This document shows, piece by piece, positions 3,901 through 63,080 of a stretch of 64,000 nucleotides of DNA; position 1 is the first letter of the stretch, and each line of letters starts with the position of its first letter. A program made the translations under genes and the position numbers. The notes beneath the pieces are model-generated. The model searched no databases and was not told the DNA's origin. It saw only the letters and a program-made list of their open reading frames with translations. The stretch spans positions 31,664 through 95,663 of the forward strand of contig JACOYR010000006.1 in assembly GCA_016181765.1 (NCBI GenBank), in the 5' to 3' direction. This stretch comes from Parcubacteria group bacterium (GTDB lineage: Bacteria > Patescibacteriota > Patescibacteriia > UBA2169).

Positions 3901-3977
3901 GCACCCTTAGCTCAGCGGATTAGAGCGACTGGCTTCGGACCAGTAGGTCGGGGGTTCGAATCCCTCAGGGTGCACCA
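3901..3977 (+). tRNA. tRNA-Arg (anticodon TCG)
   Basis: Cloverleaf: acceptor gcaccct/agggtgc, anticodon stem actgg/ccagt, loop cttcgga, T-loop ttcgaat, 3' CCA encoded. Confidence 0.85.
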
Positions 3978-3978
3978 C

Positions 3979-4053
3979 GCCCCCATAACTTAGTTGGTAA
4001 AGTAGCCGGCTCTTAACCGGAAGTCCTAGGTTCGAGTCCTAGTGGGGGCACCA
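3979..4053 (+). tRNA. tRNA-Lys (anticodon CTT)
   Basis: Acceptor gccccca/tgggggc, D-stem actt/aagt, anticodon loop ctcttaa, T-arm ctagg-ttcgagt-cctag, CCA encoded; 27:43 is a G.A mismatch. Confidence 0.75.
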
Positions 4054-7020: not shown

Positions 7021-7147
7021 GGTTTCTCGCTTGGGCCCGAGCGTAGCGAGGGTTAAGCGAGAAACCGAGAGGAGTAGGCGGATGAAGGGTGGAGCGGGCG
7101 AGCGCAAGCTCGCACGCGCAACCCGCAATCCGACTACGACGAGACGA
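7021..7147 (+). ncRNA. candidate structured RNA element (copy A) immediately 5' of tRNA-Gly; unassigned family
   Basis: 10-bp hairpin ggtttctcgc/gcgagaaacc enclosing conserved loop ttgggc...gttaa; conserved gagaggagtaggcg and ccgactacgacga motifs; internal GCAA-tetraloop hairpin; family of 4 with covarying stems. Confidence 0.45.
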
Positions 7148-7221
7148 GCGGGTATCGTATAGTGGCAATACCACAGCTTTCCAAGCTGTTGCCGGGGGTT
7201 CGATTCCCCCTACCCGCTCCA
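7148..7221 (+). tRNA. tRNA-Gly (anticodon TCC)
   Basis: Acceptor gcgggta/tacccgc, anticodon stem acagc/gctgt, loop tttccaa, T-arm ggggg-ttcgatt-ccccc, CCA encoded. Confidence 0.9.
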
Positions 7222-18847: not shown

Positions 18848-19906
18848 TTACTCCGCGATAATCGGCTCTAACTCCAAGGTGATGCCGAACTTCTGGCGGA
18901 CCGCAGTGCGGATAACCCCGGCAAACTCCAGAAGCTCTTCTGTAGTGCCGTTGCGATTCACCAAAGCCAGGGTGTGGTTTTCGGAAATCCCGACCGCTCC
19001 GTGCGCATGCCCCCTCTGGAAGCCCGCATGCTCTATGAGCCAGGCAGCCGGAACCTTGATGCGGTGCTCGCTGGTTTCAAAAAACGGGATTTCTTCGGCA
19101 ACCTGCTTGCGGCTTGCGTGCCACCGCGCCGAGAGCGCGGCAAATTCTTTCTGCGAGAGTACAGGATTGGTGAAGAACGACCCGCAGGAACGCGAGTTCG
19201 GGTCGCGCGAATCCAGCACCATTGATTTTGACTTGCGCAGCGCCAACACCGCTTTGCGGATCTGTTTCAGGCTGACATCCAATGTGCCAAACAGGCCCGT
19301 GAGCTTGTCTGAAAGCTGGGCGTAGTGGACAACCGGCTTTGCCCCATTGAATAGGCGGTACGTGACTTCGGTGATGATGTACCTGTCCTTGCTGTACCCC
19401 TTGAACCGGCTCATCCGGTACCCGAACTCGCACTGCCCGTTGGTGAAGCTCGCCTCTTTGAGCGTCCTGCGGTCCAAGGCTTTGACGTGGAAAATGACGT
19501 CAGAAACTTCCTGGCCGTACGCACCCACGTTCTGGATGGGAGTTCCGCCTACCGAACCCGGAATGCCGGAAAGTGCCTCAATGCCCACAAGATTTTTGGC
19601 AATTGCCTTCTTCACGACATCATCCCAGATCTCGCCCGCTGCCGCGGCAACAAACGTGTACCCGTCACTGGCTTTGAATTTGACGCCTTTCAAATCAACT
19701 TTGACGACCAGGCCGTTAAACCCCTCGTCCTTGAAGACGGTGTTGCTGCCGCCGGAGAGGATCCACACCGGCATATTCTTCTTGTCCGCATACTGCAAAG
19801 CCTTCTTTAGTTCATCAATCGTTTCAACCGCAACAAATTCCTCGGCAATTCCGCCGAGTTTTATAGTGGTTAAATCAGCTAGCTTGATGTTCTTCTTTGG
19901 CTTCAT
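18848..19906 (-). CDS. murB: UDP-N-acetylenolpyruvoylglucosamine reductase
   Basis: LTTIKLGGIAEEFVAV...PVWILSGGSNTVF FAD-binding pattern; start placed at MKPKK to avoid overlapping tRNA-Ser. Confidence 0.85.
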   Translation of the reverse strand: MKPKKNIKLADLTTIKLGGIAEEFVAVETIDELKKALQYADKKNMPVWILSGGSNTVFKDEGFNGLVVKVDLKGVKFKASDGYTFVAAAAGEIWDDVVKKAIAKNLVGIEALSGIPGSVGGTPIQNVGAYGQEVSDVIFHVKALDRRTLKEASFTNGQCEFGYRMSRFKGYSKDRYIITEVTYRLFNGAKPVVHYAQLSDKLTGLFGTLDVSLKQIRKAVLALRKSKSMVLDSRDPNSRSCGSFFTNPVLSQKEFAALSARWHASRKQVAEEIPFFETSEHRIKVPAAWLIEHAGFQRGHAHGAVGISENHTLALVNRNGTTEELLEFAGVIRTAVRQKFGITLELEPIIAE

Positions 19907-19914
19907 GGATGTAG

Positions 19915-20004
19915 TGGCGGAGAGGGTGGGATTTGAACCCACGAGGACTTTGCAGCCCTACCGCTTTTCGAGAGCGGCGCTTTCAACCACTCAGCCACCT
20001 CTCC
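19915..20004 (-). tRNA. tRNA-Ser (anticodon CGA), class II with long variable arm
   Basis: Reverse complement ggagaggtggctgagtggttgaaagcg-ccgct-ctcgaaa-agcgg-tagggctgcaaagtcctc-gtggg-ttcaaat-cccac-cctctcc-g-cca. Confidence 0.85.
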
Positions 20005-20122
20005 TCGTCACAGTCGGACTCTAGCTTCCGTGTCCGAGTGAAACTCGGCCACTTCAGCTGTCGTCCGCCTTTTCCTCACAGTTTTGCGCTTAACCGACCT
20101 GCGGTCGGCCCAAGCGCAAAAC
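20005..20122 (-). ncRNA. candidate structured RNA element (copy D) immediately 5' of tRNA-Ser on minus strand
   Basis: Reverse complement reads ttttgcgc-ttgggccgaccgcaggtcggttaa-gcgcaaaa-ctgtgaggaaaaggcggacga...gctagagtccgactgtgacga then tRNA; same architecture as copies A-C. Confidence 0.45.
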
Positions 20123-20200
20123 TGAAAAAGACTACTGCAAGAATACTTAAAAAACCAAAAAAAAGCAACCCAAAACATGGACAAAAGAGCCGGATTATCA

Positions 20201-20206
20201 TATACT
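20201..20206 (+). promoter_or_regulatory. TATACT box 6 nt upstream of galU ATG (leaderless-type)
   Basis: catatactgcacttATG. Confidence 0.35.
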
Positions 20207-20212
20207 GCACTT

Positions 20213-21094
20213 ATGAAAAAACAGCAGACCATACGGAAAGCGATTATCCCGGTGGCAGGGTTTGGCACGCGATTTTTGCCCGCAACCAAGGCCCAGCCAA
20301 AGGAAATGCTCACATTGGTTGATAAGCCGGTCATCCAATACATTGTTGAGGAAGCGGTTGCCTCGGGCATCACGGACATCATCCTCGTCACCGGCCAGAA
20401 CAAACGCGCCATTGAGGACCACTTTGACCGCAACTTTGAACTGGAGTACCGCTTAAAGCAGAAAGGGAAGTTTGAAGCCCTGGATGAGCTGGAGGCAATC
20501 ACCAACCTCGCGAACTTCTACTACGTGCGCCAAAAGACCCCGCTCGGAGACGGGCACGCCGTTCTGCAGGCAAAAGACCTGGTTGCCCCGGATGAGCCGG
20601 TTGCCGTGCTCTTCGGAGACGACATCGTGGTGGGAAAAACTCCTGCCTTAAAACAACTCATTGATGTATACGAAAGATACCAAGACGTGGTCCTGGCCGT
20701 TGACCGCGTGCCAAAGAGCGAGGTGGAAAGCTATGGCATTATTGATGTTGCGTCAAGCAACGGAAAAACGCATGAGATACAAGGCTTTGTGGAAAAACCG
20801 AGCCCCAAAAACGCCCCCTCCAACCTCGCGTGGATCGGAAAGTGCATCATCACGCACGAAATCTTTGGCATCCTCTCCAACATGAAGCGCGGCAAGAGCG
20901 GGGAAATCAGGCTTGCGGACGCGTTCGCTCTCCTGCTCAAAAAACGCACGCTCTACGCCTGCGAACTGGAAGGCCAACGTTTTGACTGCGGCTCTAAACT
21001 CGGATTCCTCAAAGCAACGGTCGCGTTCGGCCTCGCGCACCCGGAGCTCAAGCGTGACTTCGCAAAATACCTAAAAAGTATTAGAATAAAGTAG
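20213..21094 (+). CDS. galU: UTP--glucose-1-phosphate uridylyltransferase
   Basis: AIIPVAGFGTRFLPATKAQPKEML...VDKP nucleotidyltransferase signature. Confidence 0.85.
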   Translation: MKKQQTIRKAIIPVAGFGTRFLPATKAQPKEMLTLVDKPVIQYIVEEAVASGITDIILVTGQNKRAIEDHFDRNFELEYRLKQKGKFEALDELEAITNLANFYYVRQKTPLGDGHAVLQAKDLVAPDEPVAVLFGDDIVVGKTPALKQLIDVYERYQDVVLAVDRVPKSEVESYGIIDVASSNGKTHEIQGFVEKPSPKNAPSNLAWIGKCIITHEIFGILSNMKRGKSGEIRLADAFALLLKKRTLYACELEGQRFDCGSKLGFLKATVAFGLAHPELKRDFAKYLKSIRIK

Positions 21095-50317: not shown

Positions 50318-50451
50318 AATAGTGCCCCTTTTAATGATTATAGGTTCCTATAGTATACTAAAATGGGCATGCATTGTAAAAATAACGCTATTACGGTATA
50401 ATTCGCCTATATTTTGCTCGGATGCGGAACCCCAAACCCCAACTCTGACGC

Positions 50452-50528: not shown

Positions 50529-50609
50529 TAATTTGTCAAAATTGTCAACTTTTTCATGATGGGTTGAACAAAATTTACATGGGTTGAACAAAAATTATGA
50601 ATCTGACGC

Positions 50610-50685: not shown

Positions 50686-50731
50686 GACAAATTGTTCAGT
50701 GTTAAACTTTAAAAATACCTCTTTCTTACAA

Positions 50732-50847
50732 ATTTTCTCTTGGGCTCACCGCAGGCGAGTTAAGAGAAAATTTGAGAGGAGTAGGCGTGCGGAGGGTGTA
50801 GTCAGTGCTGTAAGGCACAGAAGAAACCCGCAGCGCGACTACGACGA
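50732..50847 (+). ncRNA. candidate structured RNA element (copy B) immediately 5' of tRNA-Ala(CGC)
   Basis: attttctc-ttgggctcaccgcaggcgagttaa-gagaaaat-ttgagaggagtaggcg...gcgactacgacga then tRNA. Confidence 0.45.
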
Positions 50848-50923
50848 GGGCCTGTAGCTCAGTTGGTAGAGCGCCACATTCGCATTGTGGAGGCCAGGAG
50901 TTCAAATCTCCTCAGGTCCACCA
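50848..50923 (+). tRNA. tRNA-Ala (anticodon CGC)
   Basis: G3:U70 pair; anticodon stem ccaca/tgtgg, loop ttcgcat; CCA encoded. Confidence 0.85.
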
Positions 50924-62770: not shown

Positions 62771-62798
62771 TATACTTTTTTTGTCTTAAATATACAAA

Positions 62799-62914
62799 AT
62801 TTCCGTTGGGCTGAGCGAAGCGAAGTTAACGGAAATTTTGAGAGGAAGAGGCGGACGAAAGCCGAAGCAGGCTCGCGCAGTGAGCATGCGGAGGCTGTAG
62901 TCCGACTCTGACGA
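62799..62914 (+). ncRNA. candidate structured RNA element (copy C) 5' of a truncated tRNA-Gly-like sequence
   Basis: atttccg-ttgggctgagcgaagcgaagttaa-cggaaat-tttgagaggaagaggcggacgaaag...ggctgtagtccgactctgacga. Confidence 0.45.
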
Positions 62915-62985
62915 GCGGGTATCGTATAATGGCTATTATGCCACCTTGCCAAGGTGGAGATACGGGTTCAATTCCCGGCTACAGT
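62915..62985 (+). pseudogene. tRNA-Gly(GCC)-like sequence lacking the 3' acceptor strand and CCA (truncated or pseudo-tRNA)
   Basis: First 13 nt identical to tRNA-Gly(TCC) at 7148; anticodon arm ccacc-ttgccaa-ggtgg and T-arm acggg-ttcaatt-cccgg intact; after cccgg comes ctacagtgatgg instead of tacccgc-t-cca. Confidence 0.5.
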
Positions 62986-62995
62986 GATGGTGCGT

Positions 62996-63080
62996 GCCGG
63001 GATGGTGGAATGGTATACACGCGACACTTAAAATGTCGTGCGCTATGCGCATGTGGGTTCGAGTCCCGCTCCCGGCACCA
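62996..63080 (+). tRNA. tRNA-Leu (anticodon TAA), class II
   Basis: Acceptor gccggga/tcccggc, 3-bp D-stem, anticodon stem cgaca/tgtcg loop cttaaaa, variable arm tgcgc-tat-gcgca, T-arm gtggg-ttcgagt-cccgc, CCA encoded. Confidence 0.85.

Follow-up and report, generated by a model that had tools for sequence, protein, structure and literature searches.

Why should a tRNA gene be preceded by a long and folded leader? In the usual view, the leaders of bacterial tRNAs are short and disposable and have no structure. The question is raised by a 64,000-nt stretch of DNA from a Parcubacteria group bacterium (contig JACOYR010000006.1; the whole stretch is called the window below), where an element of 118 nt occupies positions 20005..20122 of the minus strand and ends at the base before tRNA-Ser(CGA). 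The original prediction, made from the letters of the window alone, described it as a minus-strand copy of an element that carries nested hairpins and stands upstream of tRNA genes. The association of the element with tRNA 5' ends is unusual and precise, and it is strongly supported that the element represents a real, uncatalogued and lineage-restricted family of structured RNAs.

Sequence and fold of the element

Read on the minus strand from 20122 to 20005, the tRNA-Ser copy is GTTTTGCGCTTGGGCCGACCGCAGGTCGGTTAAGCGCAAAACTGTGAGGAAAAGGCGGACGACAGCTGAAGTGGCCGAGTTTCACTCGGACACGGAAGCTAGAGTCCGACTGTGACGA. It is directly followed by tRNA-Ser(CGA) (19915..20004 (-); called by ARAGORN, 63 bits on the Rfam tRNA model), whose G+1 adjoins the A at 20005. 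Both conserved blocks quoted in the original prediction, GAGGAAAAGGCGGACGA and GCTAGAGTCCGACTGTGACGA, are found in this copy. A covariance-model search had been proposed there, and a model built from the four copies of the window recovered the element at 20005-20122 (-) with 127.6 bits (E 1.4e-28), ending at the base before the tRNA; the predicted coordinates were exact. This model made exactly four matches in the window (119-130 bits, E 1e-26 to 1e-29), and a model from 102 copies scored the tRNA-Ser copy at 114.9 bits. Over the whole window both models picked out these four copies and no other. For the signature pattern GAGGANNAGGCGNNNG...ANNNCGACTNNGACGA the window has four occurrences, where 100 shuffles lead one to expect 0.00, and the folding z-score of the element together with its tRNA is -5.3.

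The element is about 118 nt long and has two domains, a hairpin (P1) and a rod (P2-P4). In the tRNA-Ser copy P1 lies at 20081..20122 (-) and consists of a 9-bp variable stem, the motif CUUGG-G-CC / GG-UUAAG and an apical stem with a GCA triloop. Across the family the stem varies in sequence and is fixed in length at 9 bp; the motif, made of two U-A pairs, two G.U pairs and one bulged G, is invariant in 54-56 of 56 scored sequences; and the apical stem at the tip is variable, in many cases with a GNA triloop. The CA immediately 5' of P1 (20123..20124 (-)) covaries with the UG just 3' of it by mutual information, and this pairing lengthens P1 by 2 bp. In the flank, C is found at -2 in 60/74 cases and A at -1 in 66/74.

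The rod of domain 2 (20010..20072 (-)) contains a G.A mismatch and two 3x3 internal loops. Its consensus starts with nnAG-G-CGnnn paired with nnnCG-A-CUnn, with one G.A mismatch, and continues through a 3x3 GNA/GNA loop, a 4-bp P3, a second GNA/GNA loop and a P4 that has another G.A mismatch and a variable tip. The first loop of the tRNA-Ser copy is GAC/AGA. The internal hairpin ccgagt/actcgg, described in the original prediction as different in sequence from the other copies and still paired, is the apical part of this rod (P4b, ccgagt-ttc-actcgg, 20034..20048 (-)). Its sequence is indeed unlike in each copy with the pairing kept, and its pairs covary across copies.

Between the two domains lies a conserved strand, UGUGAGGA in the tRNA-Ser copy (20073..20080 (-)) and UGARAGGA in the family consensus. 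The element ends in a 3' tail, GACGA here (20005..20009 (-)) and GACGN in the family, whose last base is position -1 of the tRNA. Junction strand and tail pair non-canonically: in the family RAGGA pairs with GACGN as R.N, A.G, G-C, G.A and A.G, and in the tRNA-Ser copy the tail pairs with the AGGA region as A.G, G.A, G-C, A.G and G.A, with G46.A118 and G48-C116 among the contacts when positions are counted along its 118 nt. The base before AGGA covaries, in a non-Watson-Crick manner, with the last base of the element (G with A in 35 cases, A with C or U in 26). Intact copies provide three exceptions, and the other seven combinations belong to copies that are truncated or degenerate. Single genomes can contain both states. 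The RAGGA/GACGN helix is proposed because of this covariation, the invariant G-C pair and the tandem GA/AG juxtaposition. With this pairing the rod would therefore extend right to position -1, and the tRNA boundary belongs to the predicted fold of the element. Every base of the junction strand would then have a partner, first at positions -1, -2 and -3 of the 5' flank and then in the tail.

Pairing and covariation were measured in an alignment of 58 distinct sequences from a metagenome search (alignment A4). There 95.1% of pair-cells are paired, against 71.6% in shuffles; sliding the register lowers pairing to 30-42%; and changes on both sides are seen in 33 of the 40 pairs. None of 500 shuffles matched the observed pairing and covariation values. 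Nearly all of the top mutual-information pairs are pairs of the model, and the mutual-information analysis found no pseudoknot or long-range covariation outside the two rods. The pattern of substitutions indicates that the fold is under strong purifying selection. As for a small open reading frame hidden in the rod, the alignment contains no conserved start codon.

That the fold is made by the sense strand, i.e. the strand of the downstream gene, is supported. The invariant G.U pairs become C.A mismatches on the opposite strand, and in 74/74 copies the sense strand folds more stably than the complement (mean -54.6 vs -43.5 kcal/mol; Wilcoxon p = 8e-14). The earlier view that the element is an RNA in the tRNA sense, and not a strand-neutral DNA site, agrees with its orientation, the G.U pairs and the sense-strand fold, and we infer that it is transcribed in that sense. 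A promoter or other DNA site was rejected as a reading: a -10-like sequence is missing from the tail, covariation extends over four helices, and the two strands do not fold alike.

Genomic context, distribution and turnover

The other three full copies of the window lie on the plus strand. The second (7022..7142) ends 5 nt before tRNA-Gly(UCC) (7148-7221), and the spacer repeats GACGA. The third (50731..50847) adjoins tRNA-Ala(CGC) (50848-50923), and the fourth (62797..62914) adjoins a degenerate tRNA-Gly(GCC) (62915-62986), with tRNA-Leu(UAA) (62996-63080) next. The window copies are 62-70% identical to one another, and the reverse complement of the tRNA-Ser copy matches the plus-strand copies column by column, as had been claimed. 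Of a fifth copy only 36 nt at the 3' end are left, and they form the leader of tRNA-Ala(GGC) at 50416..50451 (+); the local alignment score of this remnant is 46, against a shuffle maximum of 30. Four of the nine tRNA genes in the window carry the full element, and the other five have ordinary leaders or come after another tRNA.

Further copies were collected by pattern scans of species-representative genomes and of metagenome contigs, each filtered by the covariance model. Together with the window these gave 102 matches, or 77 distinct sequences, with a mean pairwise identity of 63%. All credible matches are in assemblies of Patescibacteria, the candidate phyla radiation (CPR), among them 'Parcubacteria group bacterium' and 'bacterium CG10_46_32', and pattern matches in other phyla failed the covariance model. 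The bacteria concerned are tiny, Parcubacteria-like and from groundwater, and the genome of the window is present in the runs SRR12113430 and SRR12113431. One weaker, simplified copy comes from a Saccharibacteria metagenome-assembled genome (MAG; L080). Several matches are in MAGs titled 'uncultured Gammaproteobacteria bacterium' (L014, L016, L020, L036, L054, L055, L074, L078, L081, L090). At least one of these, that of L055, encodes a ribosomal protein S7 that NCBI names 'Parcubacteria group bacterium', and the titles look mislabelled.

The element matches no catalogued family. Rfam 15 at gathering thresholds detected only tRNAs in the whole window, and at E<=10 three copies gave unrelated low scores (e.g. 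miRNA hairpins) and no family common to the copies. No description of the element was found in the literature. Among 240 matches listed from viral contigs, a regular expression detected no full element; this screen consisted of two loose pattern scans and is a weak test.

Contexts were counted over 104 model matches before duplicate removal. A tRNA on the same strand adjoins 71 of them, and several matches at contig ends plainly run into tRNAs. One copy (L020) adjoins a transfer-messenger RNA (tmRNA) at +1. In five matches (four distinct) the Y-ATG of a real gene comes next, so that the ATG lies exactly 1 nt past GACGA in every case; the genes encode ribosomal protein S7 (after rpsL), FtsK, a PrgI-like protein and a small membrane protein. 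Eight matches are upstream members of tandem arrays, in which two or three elements stand before one tRNA (L132:309-696(-), L136:6839-7084(+), L110:6011-6255(-), L166:141-403(-)); these upstream members have degenerate 3' ends without the GACGN tail, and in some of them the end is A/T-rich and promoter-like. Ten more (five distinct) are directed at the 3' end of an opposite-strand tRNA gene and lie 1-4 nt away from its CCA end (L029:2287-2413(+), L031:4266-4384(-), L136:6439-6552(-), L102:1275-1397(-), L169:628-746(-)). Three of the five are a variant type with the tail GCAUGACCC or GCAUGACUC, and two are canonical. Upstream of one of the five (L031, the one example checked) there is promoter-like sequence. 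The statement that the element always lies in the tRNA's own sense therefore holds for all four copies of the window but not for the family, in which five distinct copies converge on opposite-strand tRNAs and four precede protein genes. In about 95% of copies a cloverleaf or acceptor-stem structure comes next, belonging to a tRNA (sense or antisense) or to a tmRNA.

Of 109 distinct tRNA genes on the collected contigs, a sample biased in that contigs were picked for having the element, 63 carry it, and these represent at least 20 anticodon species. The gap between element and tRNA is 0 nt in 48, 2 nt in 10 and 3-5 nt in 4, with a 1-nt overlap in 1; it is thus relaxed (0-5 nt) at tRNAs and strict (1 nt) at protein genes. 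The sequence before the element is usually A/T-rich and promoter-like, or the element stands 8-21 nt after another tRNA. The -10-like hexamers have no sharp placement relative to P1 and do not fix the transcription start. Promoter-like sequence upstream of the tRNA-Ser copy is weak.

The element is gained and lost between relatives. Near-identical copies stand at unrelated genes of one genome (Lys/Gly 94%, Ala/Cys 98%, tmRNA/rpsG 95%), and the stems of copies within a genome differ by 30-40%. The rpsL-rpsG spacer is 137 nt long and filled by the element in L055 (4376-4495(-)), against 3-29 nt in three relatives without it (3-8 nt in L431:9993-10000 and L432:9998-10000, 29 nt in L430:1251-1279). 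The 29-nt spacer, ...TTTATATTGACGAC-ATG, ends in TTGACGAC-ATG and looks like the result of a deletion of the element between two TTGAC repeats. Decay is also seen in the leader of tRNA-Pro(GGG) (L431:5816-5880(-)), which keeps P1 and the junction strand and has lost the domain-2 rod, apparently by deletion between short CGG repeats. Given the near-identical copies, the rpsL-rpsG polymorphism and the decayed remnants, the element is copied, converted and lost, and is dispensable for any given tRNA.

Some neighbours of the window copies deserve mention. The gene murB (18848..19906 (-); Pfam FAD_binding_4 and MurB_C) starts with an ATG only 8 nt past the CCA end of tRNA-Ser, and because of this distance it is probably in the same transcription unit. 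The tRNA-Gly(GCC)-like sequence at 62915-62986 scores 32 bits on the Rfam tRNA model and was not called by ARAGORN. Up to the T-loop only a few substitutions separate it from the intact tRNA-Gly(GCC) found in a relative (L074), and it is probably a pseudogene because its 3' acceptor strand has been replaced. The best-scoring element copy of the window stands upstream of this degenerate tRNA, and tRNA-Leu(UAA) begins 9 nt beyond it. Upstream of tRNA-Arg(CCU), positions 50600-50609 read AATCTGACGC and resemble the tail motif only. At 3901-4053 tRNA-Arg(UCG) and tRNA-Lys(CUU) lie 1 nt apart without an element; in two relatives (L081, L069) one or both of these tRNAs have a copy of their own. The 20 window proteins that were scanned are products of ordinary housekeeping genes and gave no clue to an RNase.

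A proposed role in forming the downstream 5' end

The reading that we favour, with a probability of about one half, is that the element is a 5'-end-defining 'punctuation' leader, cut at its 3' boundary and released as a compact RNA of about 120 nt. The element would be co-transcribed in the tRNA sense as the 5' leader of tRNA, tmRNA and a few protein-gene transcripts. The RNA would fold into its two rods, P1 and P2-P4, and the UGARAGGA between them would zip with two upstream bases and with the GACGN tail. If the RNA started about 3 nt before P1, between the U and the ACA of a conserved UACA, a closed 'nicked dumbbell' of about 121 nt would result. The tRNA acceptor stem would branch off at the nick, the last base of the leader being tRNA position -1. 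The transcript would be cut exactly at the 3' boundary of the element, probably by RNase P where a tRNA or tmRNA follows. This would yield the mature 5' end of the downstream RNA and a compact leader RNA with both ends base-paired, which may have a role of its own.

Cutting at the boundary by RNase P is the simplest reading because about 95% of the copies precede a cloverleaf or acceptor-stem structure. Since element-free tRNAs have ordinary leaders and some copies lie 2-5 nt from +1, the host must have a general 5'-processing activity, and it is therefore unlikely that the element replaces RNase P. A search of related contigs (495 kb) for motifs of RNase P RNA gave coding-looking matches only and was uninformative. 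Cutting at the boundary of the element would make the mRNAs of protein genes translatable. Translation in the clade seems to start without Shine-Dalgarno signals: in two relatives (L431, L432) Shine-Dalgarno-like motifs occur at about 5/40 gene starts and the upstream regions are A/T-rich. In the window, the sequence upstream of a galU-like gene (20178-20215) consists of TGGACA-17-TATACT and 6 nt before the ATG at 20213. This layout and the murB junction (19904-19914) suggest leaderless or near-leaderless mRNAs, and a very stable structure touching an ATG would need removal. The strict gap at protein genes and the relaxed gap at tRNAs would be expected if the cut falls at the 3' edge of the element and only tRNAs are trimmed further. 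The rod could place AGGA beside the ATG. Ribosome binding as the main role of AGGA, as a Shine-Dalgarno sequence, was rejected, given the few such motifs at gene starts (about 5/40), the pairing of AGGA with the tail and the predominance of tRNAs downstream.

Several points weigh against the punctuation leader. Folding of the 5' regions revealed no tRNA-like or acceptor-stem structure after the ATGs of the protein genes, so RNase P cannot explain these contexts. RNase P normally prefers an unpaired -1 base, and in the element this base is paired. Five distinct copies face the antisense strand of a tRNA, where no useful 5' end arises. Remnants and deletions mark the element as dispensable for individual tRNAs, only 4/9 of which carry one in the window. 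The adjacency itself may partly come from genome compaction, to which the 1-nt distance between tRNA-Arg and tRNA-Lys and the short rpsL-rpsG spacers testify. The strong conservation of the internal loops is left unexplained, and the transcript and its cleavage are steps that we infer.

The copies converging on antisense tRNAs are understandable only with the element itself as the product, and they are best explained if the RNA of about 120 nt is an abundant small RNA, protein-binding or a decoy, for which the adjacent tRNA, sense or antisense, serves as the RNase P signal that makes its 3' end. We consider this rather unlikely. Its two ends are base-paired side by side, and a closed dumbbell would be shielded from exonucleases; upstream tandem copies exist without a tRNA; the conserved loops resemble binding sites; and tRNA-like structures act as end-processing signals elsewhere (MALAT1/mascRNA, mitochondrial punctuation). 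However, the four protein-gene contexts have no tRNA-like signal, no partner protein or target was identified, and stems that are 30-40% different within a genome would confine a function in trans to the loops. The protein genes (with ATG at +2) would be brought under a single mechanism with tRNA, tmRNA and antisense tRNA by a new self-cleaving ribozyme that cuts its own 3' boundary without needing downstream sequence and makes tRNA and tmRNA 5' ends and leaderless mRNAs, a mirror image of hepatitis delta virus (HDV)-like and hatchet ribozymes. Such a ribozyme would account for a gap that is strict at protein genes, where no other enzyme trims, and looser at tRNAs that RNase P can trim. Small ribozymes typically have invariant loops, variable stems of fixed length, multiple and tandem copies and a patchy record of gain and loss. 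The -1 base lies inside a conserved non-canonical core, and metal binding and docking are common at tandem G.U pairs and G.A motifs. Yet no known ribozyme family was matched in Rfam, there is no pseudoknot or further covariation beyond the two rods, and we know of no natural ribozyme that cuts at its 3' edge without downstream pairing. After such a cut the tRNA would begin with a 5'-OH, RNase P would still be required at copies that lie 2-5 nt from +1, and upstream tandem copies have no tail. Self-cleavage is on balance unlikely. Slightly less likely again is its full form, a portable cassette cutting at the 3' edge that supplies mature tRNA and tmRNA 5' ends and leaderless mRNAs in bacteria without Shine-Dalgarno signals. 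As a possibility, the released nicked dumbbell might be sealed into a small circular RNA.

The weak non-canonical helix that holds the cleavage site or start codon could in principle open and close, and the element may then be a regulatory leader, a riboswitch or protein-binding site, in which a ligand or protein stabilises the junction helix, gates access of RNase P or to the start codon and so tunes the translation apparatus. Its aptamer-like design agrees with this (invariant loops, fixed helix lengths, two side-by-side domains), as do its targets, which are mostly translation components (tRNAs, tmRNA, S7), and the tandem copies, which are known from some riboswitches. We nevertheless hold it to be quite improbable: there is no terminator or other classical expression platform, FtsK, the PrgI-like protein and the membrane protein do not fit a translation regulon, the element is on some tRNAs only and easily lost, and no riboswitch family was matched. 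Its turnover would suit a selfish repeat without host function, similar to miniature inverted-repeat transposable elements (MITEs) or repetitive extragenic palindromic (REP) sequences, whose structure is kept for its own propagation. Near-identical copies (94-98%) do stand at unrelated genes in one genome, the rpsL-rpsG insertion is lineage-specific with an apparent excision scar in a relative, and truncated and tandem copies exist. A mean identity of 63% with 95% of pairs kept and invariant loops, however, points to selection on the RNA fold and not to recent copying. Orientation and position relative to the downstream 5' end are strict, no full element was seen among the viral contigs listed in the limited screen, and by eye, with no formal search, the alignment contains no target-site duplications or terminal inverted repeats beyond the hairpins. 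A selfish repeat is the least probable of these explanations and would be surprising.

Relation to known RNAs and significance

In its presumed way of working, the element would come closest to a pre-tRNA leader coupled to tRNA punctuation. With ordinary pre-tRNA leaders it shares its place directly 5' of +1, its orientation and, presumably, its removal at +1, and the same place is taken before tmRNA, itself an RNase P substrate; by position and orientation it would fit among pre-tRNA 5' leaders. Ordinary bacterial leaders are short, unstructured and unconserved between tRNAs, whereas the element has 118 nt, is common to at least 20 tRNA species, is folded and pairs its own -1 base. In tRNA punctuation (mitochondria, MALAT1-mascRNA) the tRNA defines the ends of neighbouring RNAs, and in the window tRNA-Ser stands 0 nt after the element and murB 8 nt after tRNA-Ser. 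Those systems, unlike this one, have no conserved structured partner 5' of the tRNA.

Among self-cleaving RNAs, context independence and a conserved core around -1 may be hints of kinship. Resemblance to the hammerhead core is limited to two features, tandem sheared G.A pairs beside a helix (5'-GA[helix]GA-3') and a UGA within the strand connecting two hairpins. The junction strands differ (UGARAGGA / GACGN vs CUGANGA / GAAA), there is no third closed helix with an NUH site, and no hammerhead model matched at E<=10, so membership among these three-helix ribozymes (CUGANGA...GAAA...NUH) was rejected. The closest ribozyme analogues are the theta ribozymes, minimal HDV-like ribozymes that are small, lie within ~5 nt of phage tRNA ends, occur with many tRNA types and in many copies, and were proposed to process tRNAs (PMC10879173). 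Their place is the 3' end of the tRNA, their cleavage site is their own 5' edge, their fold is the HDV double pseudoknot, and they come from gut phages (PMC10879173). The likeness is that of a small structured RNA near the ends of many tRNA types in many copies. In contrast, the element stands at the tRNA 5' end, is chromosomal in CPR bacteria and consists of two unbranched rods without a pseudoknot. Membership of the HDV-like/theta group, with its nested double pseudoknot and 5'-edge cut, was rejected on the two sequential unbranched hairpins and the lack of any HDV-family match at E<=10.

Other families were compared as well. The RNase P RNA (P4 helix, GAGGAAAGUCC...ACAGAA..GGCUUA) was rejected, with only a superficial GAGGAAAAGG resemblance and no model match at E<=10. 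T-box leaders have a Stem I with a specifier loop, a T-box sequence with a UGGN bulge and a terminator/antiterminator or sequestrator, and precede aminoacyl-tRNA-related genes. The element has no T-box match and no terminator-like site, and the gene downstream is a tRNA and not a synthetase. A specifier-like match to tRNA identity was likewise dismissed: the nearest-neighbour copy has the same tRNA type in only 5/40 cases. The HK022 put antitermination RNA is promoter-proximal and cis-acting, with two stem-loops and one unpaired base between them. The likeness is one of general description; unlike put, the element also occurs inside tRNA operons, and at a tRNA it would be cut from the polymerase-tethered transcript. 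With REP and MITE repeats (Correia, RPE) it shares a length of ~120 nt, multiple intergenic and hairpin-rich copies and gain and loss between relatives. Its behaviour is mobility-like, with copies that are 94-98% identical in some genomes and one insertion polymorphism. From these repeats it differs in strong compensatory covariation at 63% mean identity (33/40 pairs with compensatory change), invariant single-stranded motifs and a fixed orientation and distance.

A 118-nt leader on most tRNA species of a lineage, structurally selected and with a fold that ends at -1, has no described counterpart. If the released RNA were the product, it would be an abundant new small RNA. If the element were self-cleaving, it would be the first natural ribozyme to leave no scar on the downstream RNA, and a useful genetic insulator. 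If it directs or gates 5'-end formation, it would represent a new layer of tRNA maturation in the poorly understood CPR bacteria and would link tRNA processing to the production of leaderless mRNAs. In any case it is a well-supported new RNA family worth modelling and annotating.

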